Assembly: GCF_055900595.2 (NCBI RefSeq)
Contig: NZ_CM148325.1
Strand: one strand, 5' to 3'
DNA: 64,000 nt
The notes below the pieces were generated by a model, which was given only the letters and a program-made list of their open reading frames with translations, did no database searches and was not told where the DNA came from. The translations under genes were made by a program, and so were the position numbers. Position 1 is the first letter of the stretch, and each line of letters opens with the position of its first letter. Below are positions 1-22,751 of this stretch, piece by piece.

Positions 1-80
1 ATTTGTTTCCCCATCTACACGTTTATCGTCATATTTTTGTATAGCTATTCTCAGCATTCGTGGGTAGATTATTTTTTTTC

Positions 81-200
81 CAACCGCAGCGCATCCACAT
101 ACCGCCCCTCGCTGTTCTGCTGCCACAACCAGCCCAGCCCCTGCTGCGCCTGCGTTAACATTTTTGCTAGCCAGCACGGTCACGGCAGGCAATTCTATGA
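81..200 (-). pseudogene. Degenerate non-coding duplicate of the 3' end of the tagF-like gene
   Basis: About 110 bp (84-190) aligns colinearly with 1183-1290, the 3' coding end of the 1163-1933 gene, with about 13 mismatches counted by eye; similarity decays beyond. No intact minus-strand ORF covers it. Confidence 0.5.
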
Positions 201-206
201 CAGGTA

Positions 207-680
207 CTACTCATCCGTACAACCCAGCCCCCGGCGCTGAACCACTTCACTGGCAAACGTAGCTCCGGTTTTTTTCATTATTCCTTTTTGTATTTTTTGC
301 AGCGCGGGAAATGAGATTCTCCTGCATGAATCCTCTTCCCATATATCACCAGTTACAGGGCTAACTGAAAATAGTCCCCACACATCTGTCGCTCCGGCGG
401 AAGGAGAATCATAACCTACCCCAAAACTAAAATACCCAGGATGATACAGGTTACCTTTTTTATCTTTCAGAGAACCGTCAAGAAAAAACCCAGACAATTC
501 CACATTATATTTTTCATTTTTTAGTGAAAAAACCAATAATGCCTGCGCCTGTATTTCAGTAAGACCTGACTGGTTAACAGTCGTTAGATCAAACCGCGGC
601 ACATTCCTGATAAGAATTTCAGCACAACAATTCACGGACACGACCATGAAAAGCAATACTGATATTAATTTACAGGACAT
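207..680 (-). CDS. Putative T6SS immunity protein (N-terminal signal peptide or membrane anchor), cognate to the upstream effector candidate
   Basis: 157-aa ORF whose start overlaps the stop of the 665-1135 ORF by 16 nt. N-terminal hydrophobic stretch LISVLLFMVVSVNCCA. AT-rich relative to the flanking T6SS core. No recognisable catalytic motif. Confidence 0.45.
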   Translation of the reverse strand: MSCKLISVLLFMVVSVNCCAEILIRNVPRFDLTTVNQSGLTEIQAQALLVFSLKNEKYNVELSGFFLDGSLKDKKGNLYHPGYFSFGVGYDSPSAGATDVWGLFSVSPVTGDIWEEDSCRRISFPALQKIQKGIMKKTGATFASEVVQRRGLGCTDE

Positions 681-1135
681 GTTATTCTCCGCTTAACCAT
701 ATTAATCACCCCCACTAACTCACTAGCATAACCGGTATGGCCGCCATTACTGTTTTTACCTGAATTAAAACCAGAATCAATCAATGCCTGCGCAAATTGC
801 TCCGGAGATTTTTTATTTCTGACCGCATTACCAAATCGGATTGCAAAGGACTTTCCGCTAGTTGAAAAAGAGGTATAAGTGGCAACCCACACTTGATTAC
901 TCCCCAGCGGGTGAACCTGTCCTGACTGTAAAGGTGCCGGACCATGCATGGAAAAGTAGTTATTGTATTCTGTCGCGATTCTACCCTGCCCGTAAAAGGA
1001 CTCCTTTGCAGCAAGCCCCAGGATATTTTCCACAGGCACATCAAGTTGCTTAGCGATTAATTCACATTCTTTCAGATATTGCTGTACAAACCTGACTGCA
1101 CCAGTGTTATTACAGGCTTTATCATAAGACCCCAT
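665..1135 (-). CDS. Putative T6SS peptidoglycan hydrolase effector with FlgJ-like N-acetylglucosaminidase (GH73-like) domain
   Basis: 156-aa ORF with no signal peptide. LGLAAKESFYGQG resembles the AQAALESGWG motif of the FlgJ glucosaminidase domain, and YTSF...FAQALIDSGF resembles the downstream conserved block. Sits directly after tagF-like at the 3' end of the T6SS operon. Confidence 0.5.
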   Translation of the reverse strand: MGSYDKACNNTGAVRFVQQYLKECELIAKQLDVPVENILGLAAKESFYGQGRIATEYNNYFSMHGPAPLQSGQVHPLGSNQVWVATYTSFSTSGKSFAIRFGNAVRNKKSPEQFAQALIDSGFNSGKNSNGGHTGYASELVGVINMVKRRITCPVN

Positions 1136-1162
1136 GATTCACTACTCCTTGTCTGATTATTT

Positions 1163-1933
1163 TTAATGCGGCCGGATATCCAGCCGCAACGCATCCACAT
1201 ACCGCCCCTCGCTGTTCTGCTGCCAGAACCAGCCCTGCCCCTGCTGCGCCTGCGTCAGCATTTTGTCCGGCCAGCCCGGCCACGGCAGGTGGCGCACACC
1301 GGGCAGTTCCACTACCGGCACGTCCGGCAGGCCGGTGAGTTCCCGGCTACGCTGCGGTACACGTCGTAAGCCGCGTAGCCACTGCGCCCAGCGCGGCCCC
1401 GGTCGCCACATCGCCCAGAGCTGGTCTGTCTGCTCCGCCAGTCGACCGCAGCGTTCTGTCTGTGGTGAGACATGAGCTGCCGTCAACTGCGCCAGCCAGT
1501 ACAGCCAGCCCTGTGTGTCATCCAGGCTCTCTTCCAGCCATTCCCGCCCGACACGCTGGTAAATCACCAGTGGCCACGGCCTGCCCGTACTGTCACGCGA
1601 GGCGGTCAGCACCCCGGTCAGCCACTCATCGCGCCCGCCAATGGGGAGAAATCCCGGCGACAGCACAAAACTCCACGGCAATGGGTGGTGCTCCGGTAGT
1701 GCCGTTTTCTCACGTGGTGACAGGTGCATCCAGCCGTCATTTGTTCCGGCCTTCTCGGCATCCGCGCCGTCCGGCACCACGATATGCCGCCCCTGTCCCA
1801 GCCACGTCTGCTGGTTCAGCCACGCCTGCCACACCTGCCCTTCGTTCGCGCTCACCCGCCAGCGCACGTAGTCCCGCTGGTCCGGCAGTCTGCCGAACAT
1901 CGCCGGAGCCGATACCTCTGCCCGGCGCATCAC
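1163..1933 (-). CDS. tagF: T6SS-associated protein, TagF-like (ImpM/DUF2094 type; position equivalent to SciT of Salmonella SPI-6)
   Basis: 256-aa ORF; start overlaps the tssM stop (translational coupling). Call rests on gene order after tssM and on size; family assignment is from memory, not motif-verified. Confidence 0.5.
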   Translation of the reverse strand: MMRRAEVSAPAMFGRLPDQRDYVRWRVSANEGQVWQAWLNQQTWLGQGRHIVVPDGADAEKAGTNDGWMHLSPREKTALPEHHPLPWSFVLSPGFLPIGGRDEWLTGVLTASRDSTGRPWPLVIYQRVGREWLEESLDDTQGWLYWLAQLTAAHVSPQTERCGRLAEQTDQLWAMWRPGPRWAQWLRGLRRVPQRSRELTGLPDVPVVELPGVRHLPWPGWPDKMLTQAQQGQGWFWQQNSEGRYVDALRLDIRPH

Positions 1934-4900
1934 AGCGCTCGCTCCGGGCAGGCGAAGCGTTGCAATAGCCCGCGGTTCACCGGGTCAAAATCCCGTCCGG
2001 CGGTGATTTCCAGCACCACCCGCCGCCCGTCAAAACTGTACTCCACCTGCTGTGTTCCCCGTACCACCGTCTCCTGCGCGTTACCCGCATCCAGCAGGTG
2101 AAACAGCGCCCATGGCCCGTTAGTCAGCAACGTCGAGGTGTCCTGGCGGATGCGCGGGCTGGCGGTGATTTCCGCCATTGAGCCGTTGCGCGGCCCCGGC
2201 CAGTTCACTTTCAGCGGCCTGACCGGGCCGTGAGCGTAGCGAAGCACCTGGCCGTCAATGTCAATCACCAGTTCGGTGATGGCAGGGTCCATATCCACCA
2301 CCCGCACCTGCATCGCCCAGGAAAACTTTTTCCCGCCTTCCCCATTAAAAAAAACGCTGCGGATCTGTTTCGCCTCCTGAAACGGTGTCAGGTCCGGCCC
2401 AAGCAACGTCATGTTGCCTTCGGTCGGTTTGTAGCGCCACGGGTTGCTGGCGGTGTCCGCCAGTGGGGCCAGTTGCTTCGTCCAGAACGCATCCAGCACG
2501 CCGCCGCTGGCAAAGATATGGTTAAAATCGTCCGCGCTGACTTCCTGCGGGCTGTCGGTGAAGGGGTAGCGCCCGTCGATGGCGTCGCGGCACTCATCAC
2601 CGATCACCGCTTCCATCTGCGCGTTCAGCACTTCACCGGTGCCGGCGTTGATTTTTCGCGTTCCCTGCTGCGTGAGATCCAGCAGAATATTTTTCAGTGG
2701 CGCGGGCAGTTTTGCCGCCTCCAATTGCAGTTTATCCGCCGCAGAAATGCGGCCAGGTAATGTGCTCGCTGCCAGTGCACTATCAGCGATGGTGAGCTGG
2801 GTGTAATACTCATTGAGCATCGTCAGCAGCGAATTTAACTGCGGCGCGCCGCCGCCCTGCCCGCTGTCTGTCCGCCCGGAAACCACTTCCCGCAAGGCGG
2901 CGAAACGGTCATCCACCAGTGATTTCTCTAGCCGCTCTTCCGGGTGGATGTCCTGCAATAGCTTTGCCGTCTGCACTGCTTTTCCCACATTGCCGGAGAG
3001 CCGGTCCTGCGTGCGCTGGGCCATCTGCTTTTGTCTGGCCTGCGCATCCAGCGGCGGCACCAGCGTGGTCTGCTCCACCACCGCTTTACTCAGGCGCATC
3101 AGCGGGGAATCCGGCGAGGCCAGGGTACGCAGCACCTGAAGGTCATACGCCAGCCCGGGACTGCCGTCTTCCCCGGCACTGTTGATGCTGTGAATACTGG
3201 CCAGAAAATCCTGCCAGCGGCGGGCATATTCAGCCAGGTACAGGCGGCGTACCTCACGGGTAACCGGGAGTTCCTGCCCCGGCAACTGGCTCATCACAAT
3301 ATCCGTCGTTTTTTTTTGCGTGTTTTCCCGGCCCATCACCCAGGCGTCGTCCGCTGATGCGGCTGCGACAAACTCCGACAGCCGTTTGTCGAACAGTTCC
3401 CGGTAGCCTTCGCGAGTGAAGATGCCGGGCACGCCCCGATCCAGCGGCGCGCCATCCGTGCGGACAAAAACCGTTCCCGCATCCGCGCCCACAGCGCGAA
3501 CCAGCGAAAACTCCTGCGGTGCTTCGCTCTCCATGGAAGCCAGGGCTCGAGTGTAGATACGCTCGGTGCTGGTATGGCCGTCAAGGAAAGCTCGCGCCTG
3601 GCGGATCAGCCCCTCATCTTTTTCCCAGGGCAAATGCACCACGCGGCTGCCGTCAAACAGGGCATCGATATGCTCCAGCACGGCGGCGCGACCGCCGAAC
3701 TCCGCCACGCTGTCGCGGTTGCCCAGGTCGTTCAGCACCCAGGCGTGGATCTCCGCCGCGTTGTATTTATCCTCGTGGTCCTTATCGAGGTTCAGCAACA
3801 GATAAACATGCAGGGCGTCATAGGCGGCTTTGCTGTCCTGACGCGCAATCGCATCCGAAAGCACGTATTCCATGCGTTTCACCAGCGGTGGCAGCAGTAA
3901 CTGGTCCAGCAGACGGTCATACAGGGATGCGACGCTCTCCATCACCGGCGGAACGCTGTAAAGACCATAACACCAGGCCAGCGGCGGCGAGTCCGGGTCC
4001 AGTCCCGGCCATGCAGAGAGCGCCCGTGCCTGGTTCAGCAGGGCCGGAACAGGCTGCATAGCAGGTTTTCCGGTATAGGCTTTGACATCACCATCCAGTT
4101 GGGTCGTCCGGCTGGCGATTTCATTCAGATAACCGCTGTTCCCCTGCTGGCTACCCTGCATGCCCTGCCACAACCAGAAAGCCAGCGCCAGTACCAGCAG
4201 ATGCCCGCCAGTACGCAGCAGGCGATAACGCCAGGCCCATTGAAGATTCGGCTCCACCAGGTGCGCTTCGCGGAAGATAAACTGCGTCAGTAGATCGTGC
4301 AGGAAATAGCTGCGGTTGCCGTCCGGCAGGGTATGGGATGGGGAATCAGCCTTCCCTTTGATCGCCCGGACAAAACGCTGCCAGATGCCCGACTGGTCAG
4401 CCACGGCGTCTGCCTGCGCCTGCGCGGCGCTGGTAAAAAATACGCCGCGCAGGGTGTTGTTAAGCTGGGTGGCGTCAAATTTTGAGTCGAGGAAAATCTG
4501 CTCAATGGCTTCCAGCAGCGGCGCACCCAGCGCGGCAAATTCACGCGGGAAGCGGTAGAGCCGCTGGCGGCTTTGAAGGTCGTACTCTTCCTGCAACCGG
4601 GTATCCAGCCCCTGATCCAGCCGCAGCGTCAGGTTTGCCAGTTCCCGGCCACAGAGCGCATGCAGCGACTGCGGATCGCTGGCGTGACGCCTGCGGCTGT
4701 AAGGCAGGGTGAAGCCCCAAACCTGGGCGCGCAGGTGGCTGGTCAGCCCGTGGAAATACTCCGTAAAGCCCGGCAGCAGATCCATTTTGGTGACGACCAG
4801 ATAGACCGGAAAACGAATACCCAGCGTCTCCCGCAGTTCCGCCAGCCGCGCACGCAGGGCCGCACAGGCAGCCAGTCGTTCCGCCGGGGACTGCGCGGTC

Positions 4901-5796
4901 AGATCCGCCACGTTCAGCGTCAGGATCACACCGTTGAGCGGTGCGCCAGGGCGGTGCTTACGCAGCAGCCCAAGAAACCCCTGCCACTCCCCGGCGTTAC
5001 GCTGAGTCGCGCTGATTTCGCCGCCGTCATCGTGGCGGGCATAGCGCCCGGCGGTATCGATGAGTACAGCCTCGTTGGTGAACCACCAGTCACAGTGCAG
5101 CGTGCCGCCGCCCGGCACGGTGAGGATATGCGCGGTCTGCTCCATCTGCTCCGCCAGCGGAAACTGTAGCCCGGTGTTAAGTAGCGCGGTGGTTTTGCCA
5201 TCGCCGGGGCTGCCGATAACCATAAACCACGGCAGTTCGTACAGGAAGCGCTTCCCTTCCAGGACCTTACGCCAGCCGGGCAGGTCCACCCGCAGTTGTT
5301 TCAGTTGCCGGATGGCACGGGTGACAATATGGCTGACCGTGCGCAGGTCGGCTTTAATTTCCCCGGCCACCGGCACGTCTTCCCCGCGCGGATGCAGGAA
5401 ACGGCGCAGCAGTTGTTCATCCAGGCGCAGCGCCCGCCACAGTCGGTACAGGCCATAAAGCGCATAAGTCAGCAGGATCAGGCCGATAAGCGTCAGACGC
5501 AGCCACAGCGGCGCAAACGGGCGAACGTCACCGAAGGCCAGCAGGGGTGAAACAAAACCGATGACCAGGCACAGAACCGTTACGCCAATGATGCTCATCG
5601 ACCAGTTCACCAGCCACAGGGCGAGGAACATCAGTAACAGAACGATGGTGACTACCCGGCTCCCCACAGATGCCAGCGGATGCAGGGTATCAAACGCCAC
5701 CAGCGGCCCGATAAACCAGACCAGCAACGCCAGCATCACCACGCCGACAACGGCCAGCGCGCGGCGGGAAAACAGCATACTGAGAAATTTTTGCAT
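1930..5796 (-). CDS. tssM: T6SS membrane complex protein TssM (IcmF family)
   Basis: 1288-aa ORF with N-terminal transmembrane helices, Walker A motif GSPGDGKTT, and a large C-terminal periplasmic region. Coupled to the upstream and downstream genes. Confidence 0.9.
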   Translation of the reverse strand: MQKFLSMLFSRRALAVVGVVMLALLVWFIGPLVAFDTLHPLASVGSRVVTIVLLLMFLALWLVNWSMSIIGVTVLCLVIGFVSPLLAFGDVRPFAPLWLRLTLIGLILLTYALYGLYRLWRALRLDEQLLRRFLHPRGEDVPVAGEIKADLRTVSHIVTRAIRQLKQLRVDLPGWRKVLEGKRFLYELPWFMVIGSPGDGKTTALLNTGLQFPLAEQMEQTAHILTVPGGGTLHCDWWFTNEAVLIDTAGRYARHDDGGEISATQRNAGEWQGFLGLLRKHRPGAPLNGVILTLNVADLTAQSPAERLAACAALRARLAELRETLGIRFPVYLVVTKMDLLPGFTEYFHGLTSHLRAQVWGFTLPYSRRRHASDPQSLHALCGRELANLTLRLDQGLDTRLQEEYDLQSRQRLYRFPREFAALGAPLLEAIEQIFLDSKFDATQLNNTLRGVFFTSAAQAQADAVADQSGIWQRFVRAIKGKADSPSHTLPDGNRSYFLHDLLTQFIFREAHLVEPNLQWAWRYRLLRTGGHLLVLALAFWLWQGMQGSQQGNSGYLNEIASRTTQLDGDVKAYTGKPAMQPVPALLNQARALSAWPGLDPDSPPLAWCYGLYSVPPVMESVASLYDRLLDQLLLPPLVKRMEYVLSDAIARQDSKAAYDALHVYLLLNLDKDHEDKYNAAEIHAWVLNDLGNRDSVAEFGGRAAVLEHIDALFDGSRVVHLPWEKDEGLIRQARAFLDGHTSTERIYTRALASMESEAPQEFSLVRAVGADAGTVFVRTDGAPLDRGVPGIFTREGYRELFDKRLSEFVAAASADDAWVMGRENTQKKTTDIVMSQLPGQELPVTREVRRLYLAEYARRWQDFLASIHSINSAGEDGSPGLAYDLQVLRTLASPDSPLMRLSKAVVEQTTLVPPLDAQARQKQMAQRTQDRLSGNVGKAVQTAKLLQDIHPEERLEKSLVDDRFAALREVVSGRTDSGQGGGAPQLNSLLTMLNEYYTQLTIADSALAASTLPGRISAADKLQLEAAKLPAPLKNILLDLTQQGTRKINAGTGEVLNAQMEAVIGDECRDAIDGRYPFTDSPQEVSADDFNHIFASGGVLDAFWTKQLAPLADTASNPWRYKPTEGNMTLLGPDLTPFQEAKQIRSVFFNGEGGKKFSWAMQVRVVDMDPAITELVIDIDGQVLRYAHGPVRPLKVNWPGPRNGSMAEITASPRIRQDTSTLLTNGPWALFHLLDAGNAQETVVRGTQQVEYSFDGRRVVLEITAGRDFDPVNRGLLQRFACPERAL

Positions 5797-6083
5797 TATT
5801 GTTCAGAACTCCATGCGAGAATCAGTAATAGCAAAATGCCGCAAGCTGAAAAAATCCTTCCAGTACGGGCTACTGAAAGAAAATAAAGAGCAATCTGAAC
5901 AATTATCAAAATAAAATAAATCAACATTTTGATTATTTCTCTGTTCCCATTTCCCTGAGGCAACGTTGTCATTGAAGGATCCATATCCTGCATCCATTGA
6001 TACTCATTCCCGGAAAAAAGCATGATGATGATCAGACCCATAATGAATAACAACCATCCTGATATCTGAATTATTCTTCTCAC
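5796..6083 (-). CDS. Small predicted 3-TM inner-membrane protein of unknown function (SciR-position gene)
   Basis: 95-aa ORF with three hydrophobic segments (IIQISGWLLFIMGLIIIMLF, MLIYFILIIVQIALYFL, IFSACGILLLLILAW). Its stop overlaps the tssM start. Strongly AT-rich. Confidence 0.45.
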   Translation of the reverse strand: MRRIIQISGWLLFIMGLIIIMLFSGNEYQWMQDMDPSMTTLPQGNGNREIIKMLIYFILIIVQIALYFLSVARTGRIFSACGILLLLILAWSSEQ

Positions 6084-6091
6084 GAAGACTC

Positions 6092-6766
6092 CTAATGGGC
6101 GATGAGTAAATTAGAGAAATGCAACCAGTTGTTGACAATAAAATTGCCATAGCTGGTATCTTCCTTTATTTTCTCCAGAGTAAGCGACATACCCCGGTTA
6201 TAACGGGCACCAATAATTCTTATCTGCTCTTTCGTCAGGTGTGGTAAGGAGGACTGAAATTCATCTCTTTCAGCTAATTGATAAAGATGTCTGGCCACAA
6301 GTTGAATATTAAAAATATCATGCTGGAGGCAATTTGCCAGTTCACGCAATTGAGAGGTATCCATTTTTGACTCATCAAGCCCAAGCGTTCTGGCTGCGGT
6401 TCGCAATTGCATACTCACTGCACCAAAAGATGTTTTTTCTGGTCTCGAAGTTATTGTGATATGTTCATCAATCCACTCAGGCCCACTCCAGTCAATAGTC
6501 CGAGCATCAAATGCCAGCATATCTACAATACTGGGATCCCCCCCGACTTCTATCCAACACACACCTGCCAGTAAAGGTGCTGGCAAATTATATGTATTGG
6601 CAGCCGATGTTATCAGAAGATGGTTATGTTTTACCCAGCCATCTTTGAAATAACGCCCAAACGGTACACCACCGCCCCATTTTTTTGGCGCTAATTTCCA
6701 GAAAAGAAATTCGGTCACGCCCCATACCGGTGAATGATTCGATGCATTGCAGTCCAGATTATTCAT
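6092..6766 (-). CDS. Hypothetical protein with lysozyme/lytic-transglycosylase-like motifs (SciQ-position gene); candidate peptidoglycan-active accessory or effector
   Basis: ORF 6092-6775. ATG at 6766 has GGAG 8 nt upstream; an alternative GTG at 6775 overlaps the tssL stop. Motif series WIEVGG ... GAVSMQL ... GARYNRG is reminiscent of SLT-domain E / GLMQ / AYNxG motifs but with atypical spacing. No signal peptide. AT-rich. Confidence 0.4.
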   Translation of the reverse strand: MNNLDCNASNHSPVWGVTEFLFWKLAPKKWGGGVPFGRYFKDGWVKHNHLLITSAANTYNLPAPLLAGVCWIEVGGDPSIVDMLAFDARTIDWSGPEWIDEHITITSRPEKTSFGAVSMQLRTAARTLGLDESKMDTSQLRELANCLQHDIFNIQLVARHLYQLAERDEFQSSLPHLTKEQIRIIGARYNRGMSLTLEKIKEDTSYGNFIVNNWLHFSNLLIAH

Positions 6767-6771
6767 TTTTC

Positions 6772-8088
6772 TCACTCCACCACCAGAATTTCCACCCGAC
6801 GGTTCTGCGCCCGTCCGGTTTTAGTGCTGTTATCGGCCACCGGTACGGTATCTCCTTTCCCGACGACCCGAATCCGGCTGACCGGAACACCACCGGACGT
6901 CAGCAGTGAAGCCACTTCCGTCGCCCGTTTTTCCGACAACACCTGGTTGGAGGGGAATTCAGCGGAGTGGATCGGCTGACTGTCGGTGTGTCCGGTCACC
7001 GTCACCGCGCCGCCCACACGCGCAATCTCTCGCGCGGCCTTATCAATCACCGGGCTTAGCGCATCATTCACGGTTTTCTGCCCTGGTATAAACATCGTAT
7101 CGCCACGAAAGATTACACGGCTGTGATGGTCATCTTCCTCCACCGTCAGCAGGCCACGGGCGATTTCGTTCGCCAGCAGGATTTTCAGCCGCAGTTTATG
7201 CACTGGAACGGGTGGCGGCGGTAGATTTTTACCAATGGCGTCGATACGCTGTTGTACGGTTTCGATAGCGAGGTTCATCCGGTGGCTGTAAAGGCCAAAC
7301 AGCGTCAGCATCACCAGCAGGGCGATTCCGGCACTCAGCCAGACCGGCACGCGGCGCATCCGTCGCATTCGCCCACTGACGGCACCGGCAAAACCCGGCG
7401 AGAGCGTCGGCGTGATCGGATCGCGACGCTGGACCAGTTGAGTCAGCAGTTGCTGACGAATATCGTCCAGTTGTTTACGTCCGTCAGGCCGTACACTGTA
7501 GCGGCCTTCAAAACCCAGCCCCAGAATGTGGTAAATGATCTCCAGTACATCGTTGTGCTCCTGGAAGCTTGCGGCCAGACGCCCAATTATCTGAAACAGC
7601 TTGATGCCGCCTTCACTTTCGCCATGAAAAGTGACCAGCAGGCTTTTTCCAGCCCAGACACCGCGCCGCCCCCAGGTGGTGTTGTTGGCGGCTTCGTCCA
7701 GCGAAGTGCATAGGCAATAACGCACAGCCAGCACATGTTCGCGGCGAAGGTTTGCCTGATCGCATAACGTCTGATATCGACGAACTTCACGCTCCAGTAG
7801 GGCACGATAATGTTCGACAAAACCAGGGGATAGTTCACGGGGCATTTGCGCCAGCGCGCACAGCAGAGGGCTTGCCGCCGCTAAAAGGGGATTCACGGCA
7901 GCGGTGATTTCAGCCAGCCGGATCTTCACATCCGGGCCGTCTTCAACCACCACCTTTATATCTTCCCTGCGAAGGTTGTCCTGTATTGCCGTATCGTAAC
8001 CGTCACTGTCGGGCAGTTTTACTCCCCCGGCTGATGGCTGGAAGGGCAGGGTATTCGCCGCAGGCGGCGTCAGGATCTCATCGGTCAT
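6772..8088 (-). CDS. tssL: T6SS membrane protein TssL (DotU-like) with C-terminal OmpA/MotB-like peptidoglycan-binding domain
   Basis: 438-aa ORF with a DotU-like N-terminal region, one TM segment (VWLSAGIALLVMLTLFGLY), and a C-terminal OmpA-like region (TVTGHTDSQP...SEKRA...NRRVEI). Overlaps the tssK stop. Confidence 0.85.
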   Translation of the reverse strand: MTDEILTPPAANTLPFQPSAGGVKLPDSDGYDTAIQDNLRREDIKVVVEDGPDVKIRLAEITAAVNPLLAAASPLLCALAQMPRELSPGFVEHYRALLEREVRRYQTLCDQANLRREHVLAVRYCLCTSLDEAANNTTWGRRGVWAGKSLLVTFHGESEGGIKLFQIIGRLAASFQEHNDVLEIIYHILGLGFEGRYSVRPDGRKQLDDIRQQLLTQLVQRRDPITPTLSPGFAGAVSGRMRRMRRVPVWLSAGIALLVMLTLFGLYSHRMNLAIETVQQRIDAIGKNLPPPPVPVHKLRLKILLANEIARGLLTVEEDDHHSRVIFRGDTMFIPGQKTVNDALSPVIDKAAREIARVGGAVTVTGHTDSQPIHSAEFPSNQVLSEKRATEVASLLTSGGVPVSRIRVVGKGDTVPVADNSTKTGRAQNRRVEILVVE

Positions 8089-18609: not shown

Positions 18610-20493
18610 ATGGATCCACGGCTACTGGAATACTACAACCGCGAACTGAGCTATCTGCGGGAAACGGGAGCCGAATTTGCCGCCCGTCATCCTAAAGTCG
18701 CCGCCAGACTGGGTATGCAGGGAACGGATATTGCCGATCCGTATGTGGAGCGTATGGTCGAAGCCTTTAGCTTCCTGACCGCCCGCACGCAGCTAAAAAT
18801 TGACGCTGAATTCCCCCGTTTCACCCAGCGCCTGCTGGAAGTAGTCAGCCCCAATTACGTCACCCCCACGCCCTCAATGAGCGTGGCGCAGCTCCATCCC
18901 GACCCGGAAGAAGGCGATCTGGCGAAGGGATTTACCGTCCCGCGCGACACGGCCTTTTTTTCCGCCATTCCGGAAGGCGAAAGTACCGCCTGTCAGTTTC
19001 GCAGCAGCCAGGATGTAACGCTGTGGCCGCTCGCCATCGAAGAGGTGCGACTGACCGCCGCACCGCCGGATATGCCTGCCCTGCACCGCTCTCTGCCAGC
19101 CAACATTCACGTCGCTGGTGCGCTGCGTATTACCCTGCGCACCTTTGGTGAACTGACATTCAGTCAGCTTGCAGGGCTGGACAGGCTTCCGTTTTATCTC
19201 TGTGGCGAGGAGCGCACGGCCTCACACCTGTTCGAACTGCTACATACCAGCGCCATCGCGACCCTGGCTGGCATTCCGGGGCATTTTGACGGTGCGCTGG
19301 ATGTGAATCTGCAACATCCCGTTATGTACGAAGGCCTGGAGCTGGATCAGGGGCTGCTGCCGCTGGCGTGGAACGTGTTTCACGGTCATAACCTGCTGCA
19401 TGAATATTTTGCCTGTCCAGAACGCTTTTATTTTTTCACCCCGACAGGCCTGTCTGCCGGGTTACAGAAAATTGACGGTGGCGTGGCGGAGATTGTTATC
19501 CTGCTGAACCGCCTGCCGCCGGACTGGCTGATCCACCAGACAAACGCGGCACAGTTCAGCCTGTTCTGTACCCCGATTATCAACCTGTTTCCCCGCGTCA
19601 CCGCACGGATCGATGTCACGCACAGCACGACGGAACAGCATCTGGTGGTAGACAGAACCCATCCACTGGATTATGAGGTGTTCTCGGTCCAGGAAGTGGA
19701 AGGGCTGGAAACCGACACCACACGGAAGATGGCCTTTCGCCCGCTCTACCACACCCGCAATAATGATGAAGGCAATCACGGACGTTATTTTTCCCTGCGC
19801 CGGGAGCCCCGCCGCTTATCAGAAAACGCCCGCCGTTACGGCACCCGTACCCCCTATACGGGCTCGGAAGTGTTCCTGTCGCTGGTTGACCAATATGAAG
19901 CGCCGTACCCAGAAAATCTGCGCCACATCACCATCACGGCCATGGTCACTAACCGCGATCTGCCCTGTCTTATTGCACGTAATGGCCGGGACGATCTAAC
20001 CGTGGATGCGGCAATCCCAGTGGCGGGCGTAGGGCTTATCCGCCCGCCGCGCTCGCCGCAGCCCCCGCTGGCTGAACGTGAGATGGCCTGGCGTTTGATC
20101 CGCCAGTTATCCTTTAATTATCTGCCGCTGGCCGATCTGGATCACCGTACCGGCGGCCAGGCGCTGCGCGATCTGCTTAACCTGTTTATTCCGGCGCATG
20201 ACAGCCCACAGTCGCGCCAGGTACGCAGTCTGATTGGCTGCAACACCACCCCGGTCACCCGCCGTCTGCCCGGTACCGGGCTGCTGGTCTATGGACGCGG
20301 CGTCAGTTGTGAACTGACGGTGGATGAGGAAGGGTTCTCCGGTATCAGTCCGTATCTGTTCGGCCTGGTGCTGGAGCACTATATCGCCCGTCATGTTTCC
20401 ATTAATACCTTCTCGCAGATGACGCTGCACAGCATGCAGCGCGGCAAAATTATGACCTGGCCTGTCAGGGCGGGACAGCGGGGAAGCGTATGA
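18610..20493 (+). CDS. tssF: T6SS baseplate protein TssF
   Basis: 627-aa ORF between tssE and tssG, overlapping the tssG start; size and position of TssF. Confidence 0.85.
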   Translation: MDPRLLEYYNRELSYLRETGAEFAARHPKVAARLGMQGTDIADPYVERMVEAFSFLTARTQLKIDAEFPRFTQRLLEVVSPNYVTPTPSMSVAQLHPDPEEGDLAKGFTVPRDTAFFSAIPEGESTACQFRSSQDVTLWPLAIEEVRLTAAPPDMPALHRSLPANIHVAGALRITLRTFGELTFSQLAGLDRLPFYLCGEERTASHLFELLHTSAIATLAGIPGHFDGALDVNLQHPVMYEGLELDQGLLPLAWNVFHGHNLLHEYFACPERFYFFTPTGLSAGLQKIDGGVAEIVILLNRLPPDWLIHQTNAAQFSLFCTPIINLFPRVTARIDVTHSTTEQHLVVDRTHPLDYEVFSVQEVEGLETDTTRKMAFRPLYHTRNNDEGNHGRYFSLRREPRRLSENARRYGTRTPYTGSEVFLSLVDQYEAPYPENLRHITITAMVTNRDLPCLIARNGRDDLTVDAAIPVAGVGLIRPPRSPQPPLAEREMAWRLIRQLSFNYLPLADLDHRTGGQALRDLLNLFIPAHDSPQSRQVRSLIGCNTTPVTRRLPGTGLLVYGRGVSCELTVDEEGFSGISPYLFGLVLEHYIARHVSINTFSQMTLHSMQRGKIMTWPVRAGQRGSV

Positions 20494-22674: not shown

Positions 22675-22751
22675 TGGCGGAACGGACGGGACTCGAACCC
22701 GCGACCCCCTGCGTGACAGGCAGGTATTCTAACCGACTGAACTACCGCTCC
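22675..22751 (-). tRNA. aspV: tRNA-Asp (GUC)
   Basis: 77-nt sequence; reverse complement matches E. coli tRNA-Asp as recalled (GGAGCGGTAGTTCAGTCGGTTAGAATACCTGCCTGTCACGCAGGGGGTCGCGGGTTCGAGTCCCGTCCGTTCCGCCA). Confidence 0.97.

Follow-up and report, generated by a model that had tools for sequence, protein, structure and literature searches.

A tge2-tgi2 type gene pair beside tagF

We analysed a 64,000-nucleotide (nt) stretch of Escherichia coli DNA (assembly GCF_055900595.2, contig NZ_CM148325.1; hereafter the window), in which two short, AT-rich genes follow tssM and tagF of a type VI secretion system (T6SS). Both lie on the minus strand and begin with ATG. The upstream gene (665..1135) encodes a 156-amino-acid (aa) protein that PDB, Pfam and fold matches place in the Tge2 effector family, and the downstream gene (207..680) encodes a 157-aa protein with PDB and Pfam matches to the Tgi2 immunity family and a hydrophobic N-terminus. 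By their open reading frame (ORF) coordinates the two genes overlap by 16 nt (665..680, minus strand), exactly as in an earlier sequence-only reading of the window, which had proposed them as a candidate pair of FlgJ-like toxin and periplasmic immunity protein.

The Tge2/Tgi2 family was reportedly defined by Whitney et al. in 2013, with Tge2PP-Tgi2PP of Pseudomonas protegens. Searches with phmmer found a single PDB sequence matching the 156-aa protein, chain A of 4KT3 (Tge2PP; E 2.2e-46, residues 6-153, 54% identity). This entry is the T6SS effector-immunity complex Tge2PP-Tgi2PP from P. protegens (PMC4832377, Table 1). A family alignment was built from 25 members, 46-75% identical to the query; its profile matches 4KT3_A with an E-value of 4.3e-72, and the Pfam Glucosaminidase family (PF01832) matches the protein at 5.5e-9. 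An AlphaFold2 model based on the 25 homologues reached a predicted local distance difference test score (pLDDT) of 92.9, and its best Foldseek match is again 4KT3_A (template modelling (TM) score 0.97, root-mean-square deviation 1.7 Å), followed by the FlgJ structures 2ZYC (TM 0.73), 3VWO, 3K3T and 5DN4/5. Other GH73 structures resembling the model are Auto, AtlA, LytB and the Thermotoga glucosaminidase TM0633. The two FlgJ/GH73-like motifs that the sequence-only reading had picked out are both present, LGLAAKESFYGQG (residues 39-51) and FAQALIDSGF (residues 113-122), and the comparison it had proposed, of a predicted structure against GH73/FlgJ and the Tge families, thus came out positive.

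Among the 33 invariant columns of the 25-member alignment are Glu36, Glu45, Ser46, Gly49, a GRIA motif, Asn58-Asn59, Cys8 and Cys153, the two cysteines lying close to opposite termini. Glu45 (codon 1001-1003, minus strand) is the conserved glutamate of the KESFYG motif already singled out from the sequence. The alignment profile detects a Sphingomonas FlgJ (E 2e-5) and pairs Glu45 (AAKES) with the glutamate of FlgJ AALETGWG, the catalytic Glu185. Since PDB entry 3K3T, a FlgJ 'E185A mutant', has alanine precisely at this column, Glu45 is, on alignment, the counterpart of the established GH73 catalytic acid. No second catalytic carboxylate was identified in the effector.

The 156-aa protein was expected to lack a signal peptide, and we found no hydrophobic N-terminus in it: no 12-residue stretch among its first 30 residues exceeds a Kyte-Doolittle mean of 0.2. 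An NCBIfam scan returned FlgJ/GsmA matches only, all of them sub-threshold. We rejected assignment as a FlgJ orthologue because the protein scores 20 bits against the FlgJ model TIGR02541, far under the cut-off of 193, and has no N-terminal rod-binding domain. By sequence it is a distant GH73-like enzyme. It shares with FlgJ and other GH73 enzymes (2ZYC, 3K3T, 5DN4) the lysozyme-like alpha-helical fold and a catalytic glutamate in an A-x-E-S/T-G/x-W/Y-G helix, but is only about 20-24% identical to them and is a stand-alone putative toxin with an inhibitor. FlgJ, in contrast, works on the wall of the cell that makes it, is delivered through the flagellar type III route and carries a fused rod-capping domain.

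The 157-aa protein matches the other chain of the same crystal, 4KT3 chain B (Tgi2PP; phmmer E 4.7e-36, residues 34-157, 47% identity), and the Pfam family T6SS_Tgi2PP (PF21576; E 1.4e-13), which bears out its earlier designation as the immunity partner; two adjacent ORFs that match the two chains of one crystal are beyond chance. PADLOC had no match for either protein. The N-terminus of the immunity protein reads MSCK-LISVLLFMVVSV-NCCA/E (the slash marks the predicted cleavage site), a pattern of n-, h- and c-regions whose 12-residue hydrophobic core (residues 5-16) has a Kyte-Doolittle mean of 2.98, in keeping with the hydrophobic export signal predicted for it from the start. Residues 1-20 (nt 621-680) form the predicted Sec signal peptide and residues 34-157 the mature domain; Salmonella Tgi2 alleles carry ...S-Y-A/Q at the corresponding cleavage position. 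Thus the N-terminus fits a Sec/signal peptidase I signal by sequence, the type of cleavage being a heuristic call. The deposit name of 4KT3_B suggests a lipoprotein, which we rejected as the default for the E. coli protein, there being no lipobox before Cys18/Cys19.

Across five Tgi2 sequences (the enterobacterial alleles and Tgi2PP), 48 columns are invariant, including GLGC, and the four enterobacterial immunity proteins have the same 24-residue C-terminus, IMKKTGATFASEVVQRRGLGCTDE. Two cysteines, Cys119 and Cys154, are conserved as well. Together with Cys8 and Cys153 of the effector, they would be consistent with periplasmic disulfides.

Upstream of the pair, tagF (1163..1933, minus strand; TIGR03373, RefSeq 'TagF domain-containing protein') encodes a T6SS accessory protein and overlaps the end of tssM (1930..5796, minus strand), which encodes a T6SS membrane-complex subunit. 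The tssM assignment follows the RefSeq annotation of E. coli R32_14_1F (goat, Nebraska), to which the first 2.2 kb of the window are 99.9% identical, and IcmF Pfam domains in the Salmonella orthologue. A 27-nt spacer (1136..1162, minus strand) separates the tagF stop codon (1163-1165) from the tge2 ATG and contains a Shine-Dalgarno-like AAGGAG (1145-1150) 7-9 nt 5′ of that ATG; tgi2 has a Shine-Dalgarno-like GGAG (687-690), likewise 7-9 nt from its own start. The 16-nt overlap between the two genes, which recurs in Salmonella orthologues (5456-5471 of the comparison locus L006) and in other E. coli alleles, suggests translational coupling. A promoter and terminator scan of positions 1-2000 gave no more sites than shuffled sequence and none between tagF and tge2; the scan is uninformative about expression. 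With no promoter-like site in the spacer, the pair probably shares a transcript with tssM-tagF. Base composition sets the two genes apart from their neighbours, as had been noticed by eye: GC content is 0.43 for tge2 and 0.42 for tgi2 vs. 0.66 for tagF and 0.62 for tssM (cassette overall 42%, neighbouring genes 62-66%), and GC at third codon positions is 0.39 and 0.36 vs. 0.77 and 0.73.

Proposed mechanism and the bond cut

The direct basis for interpretation is family membership, the fold, conservation of the catalytic glutamate, the predicted export signal of the immunity protein and the position of the genes in a complete T6SS cluster. We conclude that the two genes very probably form a Tge2/Tgi2-family T6SS effector-immunity module, with an exported toxin that would cut glycan and an immunity protein that would block it. 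The pair has all the features by which Tge2 and Tgi2 are defined and which can be examined computationally, periplasmic targeting of the immunity protein being a heuristic call. Secretion, periplasmic toxicity, neutralisation by occlusion of the active site and the bond that is cut are ascribed to it by analogy with the family. For P. protegens Tge, periplasmic toxicity and a T6SS-dependent advantage over P. putida have been described, and P. protegens Tgi occludes the Tge active site (PMC6099711, PMC11114119).

The effector would thus be a single-domain, lysozyme-like (GH73/FlgJ-type) protein that lacks a signal peptide and is synthesised in the cytoplasm. The adjacent T6SS would export it as small cargo, in the Hcp lumen or on VgrG, into the periplasm of neighbouring Gram-negative cells, where it would cut the cell wall's glycan backbone, Glu45 serving as the putative catalytic acid. 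The immunity protein, produced by coupled translation, would pass through Sec into the periplasm of the cell that makes it and there may bind effector arriving from sister cells and block its active site, as in the Tge2PP-Tgi2PP crystal.

Compared with Tge2PP-Tgi2PP, both E. coli proteins are homologous over nearly their full mature length, have the same fold, are encoded in the same effector-then-immunity order and are likewise linked to a T6SS; the catalytic glutamate and terminal cysteine pair of the effector and the C-terminal GLGC of the immunity protein are conserved. The E. coli module differs in lying inside a main T6SS cluster, after tagF, and in having an enterobacterial host. Furthermore, the 4KT3 immunity protein was deposited as a 'putative lipoprotein', whereas its E. 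coli counterpart looks like a soluble, Sec-exported periplasmic protein.

Several points weigh against this assignment or against parts of it. At the position of the tyrosine in FlgJ 'YATD', which is also tyrosine in Tge2PP, the E. coli effector has phenylalanine (Phe123). NCBIfam release 20 had no match for the immunity protein, and the call of a signal peptide in it uses hydrophobicity and the small-x-small rule alone. In R32_14_1F, vgrG-like pseudogene fragments lie 3′ of the cassette. Our literature search found no description of an E. coli Tge2, and the Salmonella orthologue is described just as 'identified by bioinformatic analyses' (PMC10469887). Bond specificity is also unsettled: Salmonella Tge2 is called a 'predicted N-acetylglucosaminidase' (PMC10469887, PMC13224477), and in a review Tge1-3 are classed together as 'glycoside hydrolase (muramidase) effectors' (PMC4832377).

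That review label raises the alternative of a protein with the same family and role but a chemistry other than the N-acetylglucosaminidase of the sequence-only reading, in which a muramidase or lytic transglycosylase activity would cut the bond between N-acetylmuramic acid and N-acetylglucosamine (MurNAc-GlcNAc). A weak Pfam match to SLT_2 (E 0.13) and g-type lysozymes among the more remote structural matches of the effector model also point this way. However, beyond the family itself GH73 glucosaminidases (FlgJ, Auto, AtlA, LytB and TM0633) supply all of the top matches in sequence and fold, Pfam places the effector in Glucosaminidase, and the Salmonella literature predicts an N-acetylglucosaminidase; we therefore consider the alternative chemistry unlikely.

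Salmonella counterpart, distribution and cassette exchange

The nearest relatives of the effector outside Escherichia are from Salmonella enterica (74%, 63% and 62% identity). In Salmonella Weltevreden (locus L006) the genes run tssM-tagF-tge2-tgi2, in the same order and with the identical 16-nt overlap, and nucleotide identity between the window and this Salmonella pathogenicity island 6 (SPI-6) cluster is 76.7% from tssM through tgi2. The Salmonella cassette contrasts with its surroundings as the E. coli one does (GC 0.40 vs. 0.62-0.66 nearby). Tge2/Tgi2P is a known module of SPI-6 variable region 2 (VR2), 'downstream of tssM' (PMC10469887, PMC13224477), and Salmonella Tge2 has been reported in 150-240 serotypes (PMC10469887). 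A review describes the organisation of the Salmonella T6SS as distinct from E. coli T6SS1-3 (PMC6730261). The E. coli pair is thus, by sequence comparison, the orthologue of this already catalogued module.

The Salmonella and E. coli modules thus share their slot, their overlap, an AT-rich composition and a 74%-identical effector, and in both a remnant of the tagF 3′ end trails the cassette. They differ in copy number, the window having one module and S. Weltevreden two in tandem, the second with a frameshifted tge2. This second tge2, uncalled in the annotation (L006 5930-6490), stands before an intact tgi2, which is an orphan immunity gene remaining after decay of its effector. The S. Weltevreden modules are followed by a 97%-identical tagF 3′ remnant, the repeat copies lying at L006 4829-4958 and 6987-7052.

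The modules differ also in frequency, the E. coli one being rare. We surveyed 5,426 complete E. coli genomes. A tssM-tagF of the window type (at least 90% identity) occurs in 114 of them (~2%), and the tge2-tgi2 cassette in 12, all within the 114; eight of these 12 carry the window allele (at least 98.6% identical) and four an allele about 75% identical. Exact copies of the two window proteins are already public, encoded on 344 and 302 database contigs. Most E. coli records label the immunity gene 'hypothetical protein' and the effector merely 'glucosaminidase domain-containing protein', and R32_14_1F is annotated in the same way. The RefSeq name 'Tgi2PP family T6SS immunity protein' falls on a truncated copy, in E. 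coli VCSW7 (98.6%-identical allele), where a frameshift shortens the immunity protein to 144 aa with loss of the ...GLGCTDE C-terminus and the effector is intact (L005 1747-2181).

As a system, then, the pair is already known: there is a crystal structure, Pfam holds models for both proteins, RefSeq has a name for the immunity family and the Salmonella orthologue has been published. The initial proposal of an effector-immunity pair therefore holds up, but not as a new candidate, the genes belonging to the known Tge2/Tgi2 family with alleles already named in RefSeq.

Another small cargo module, the amidase Tae4 with its partner Tai4, occupies a different position in the same E. coli T6SS, between tssM and tagF, in 11 complete E. 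coli genomes. Strain Rb-50 has Tae4-Tai4 as well as Tge2-Tgi2. With Tae4-Tai4 before it and Tge2-Tgi2 after it, tagF is flanked by two independent cargo slots. Like Tge2-Tgi2, Tae4-Tai4 targets peptidoglycan and has a periplasmic immunity partner, but the effector has an unrelated amidase fold and chemistry, and the gene order is immunity first, effector second. In E. coli AR_0077 (L002 2518-3840) the tssM/tagF junction, which corresponds to window position ~1930, carries Tae4-Tai4 and a 50-aa ORF.

A 111-nt direct repeat, the 3′ end of tagF present twice (79-189 and 1179-1289, 89% identical), brackets the cassette. Copy B (1179-1289, minus strand) lies inside the functional tagF and is 97.3% identical to the tagF allele of genomes with an empty site. 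Copy A (79..189, minus strand) is a displaced tagF 3′ remnant, decayed to 86.5% identity with the empty-site allele, and RefSeq treats it as an incomplete coding sequence or a partial 'TagF domain-containing protein'. It ends ...DALRLEKK-stop at 69-71, and so retains the original LEKK-stop end together with the downstream flank, whereas the last 5 codons of the functional tagF read DIRPH-stop, a newly acquired end. Since copy A keeps the original tagF end and flank, the insertion has its distal edge there, and the inserted unit occupies 190-1178. We also considered the empty tagF allele as the product of a deletion between the repeats; the allele is 97% identical to copy B over the repeat but has the copy-A-type LEKK-stop end and flank. 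Insertion into an ancestral empty site fits at least as well as an origin of the empty site by deletion.

Sliding identity comparisons of window positions 200-1140 with the other E. coli allele (L004 1480-2720) and with the Salmonella modules (L006 4830-7120) revealed a mosaic. Between the two E. coli alleles, tagF is 96-100% identical and the first ~120 nt of tge2 are 83-90% identical; identity drops to 53-68% in the core and returns to 88-97% across the final ~100 nt of tgi2 together with the remnant. In its core, the window allele is nearest the first Salmonella module, and the other E. coli allele nearest the second. It is possible, and we propose it tentatively, that the tagF 3′ repeat and the conserved gene ends serve as homologous-recombination handles for the gain, loss, tandem duplication and swapping of Tge2-Tgi2 between enterobacterial SPI-6-type clusters, without a mobile element.

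Because the same AT-rich cassette occupies the same slot in Salmonella SPI-6, its association with this T6SS lineage is, from these sequences, old rather than recent and predates the E. coli strain. The suggestion of separate acquisition consequently stands at the level of the cassette, which is present in 12 of the 114 genomes and accompanied by a duplicated tagF end, and falls as a recent event in this strain.

The T6SS cluster and the state of the module

The T6SS in the window is complete, comprising tssA, tssG, tssF, tssE, tagK, clpV/tssH, tssB, tssC, hcp, tssJ, tssK, tssL, tssM and tagF, with tge2-tgi2 directly 3′ of tssM-tagF. Each of the 12 core genes is an intact ORF and reaches its NCBIfam cut-off or comes close to it. 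The cluster, an island inserted at a tRNA-Asp gene (aspV, 22675-22751), ends at this gene beside dnaQ, followed by gloB, mltD and an rrn operon. ARAGORN also called a 94-nt tRNA-His at 20276-20369, within the tssF coding region (18610-20493), which is probably a false positive.

A second AT-rich patch (5796-6775, minus strand, GC 0.36-0.45) lies between tssL and tssM and holds a 227-aa ORF (6092-6775) followed by a very hydrophobic 95-aa ORF (5796-6083). The 227-aa ORF had no match in NCBIfam, Pfam, PDB sequences or PADLOC. By eye it shows E…SMQL…RYNRG motifs recalling SLT-type lytic transglycosylases, and a single-sequence AlphaFold model was unusable (pLDDT 37). From its sequence, the 227-aa product may be another cell-wall effector whose immunity partner sits in the membrane, or else an enzyme for assembly.

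Past the start of the window, R32_14_1F carries an intact vgrG and further small genes. Before this vgrG, at L001 3926-4749, are frameshifted or partial vgrG-like 'phage late control D' pieces and small hypothetical genes, and the stretch between the Tge2-Tgi2 cassette and vgrG resembles one more variable cargo region, some of it decayed.

Decayed sequence of this kind raises the alternative that tge2 and tgi2 are themselves silent, intact-looking remnants, unexpressed or undelivered, for instance through an inactive T6SS or want of the right carrier, whose surviving role would be immunity to Tge2 attackers only. The vgrG-like fragments just downstream and the truncated immunity gene of VCSW7 point in this direction, and the frameshifted second tge2 of Salmonella, beside its intact 'orphan' tgi2, means that Tge2-Tgi2 modules do decay. 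In the window, however, neither ORF is truncated, each is preceded by a good ribosome-binding site and every family-invariant residue is kept, the 12 core T6SS genes are intact, and an intact vgrG follows further on in R32_14_1F, all of which make a decaying module distinctly improbable.

That the enzyme instead acts on its producer, making space for assembly of the T6SS membrane complex by remodelling the cell's own peptidoglycan in a FlgJ-like manner and not as a toxin, is highly improbable: homology to the FlgJ glucosaminidase domain and a location directly after the membrane-complex and accessory genes tssM-tagF speak for it, but without a signal peptide the effector could not reach its own periplasm by the Sec route, it comes with an inhibitor of its own, whose homologue has been crystallised as an immunity protein, the family prototype is a secreted toxin, and the cassette is missing from ~100 of the 114 (~90%) E. 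coli genomes with the same tssM-tagF and hence is dispensable for T6SS assembly.

Read as a Tge2/Tgi2-family effector-immunity module, the pair allows an upgrade of E. coli annotation, from 'hypothetical protein' to Tgi2 and from 'glucosaminidase domain-containing protein' to Tge2. The duplicated tagF end and the mosaic alleles offer a concrete, testable route by which SPI-6-type T6SS clusters could exchange cassettes. In E. coli, the module would be a rare accessory weapon that could influence competition between strains in the gut.

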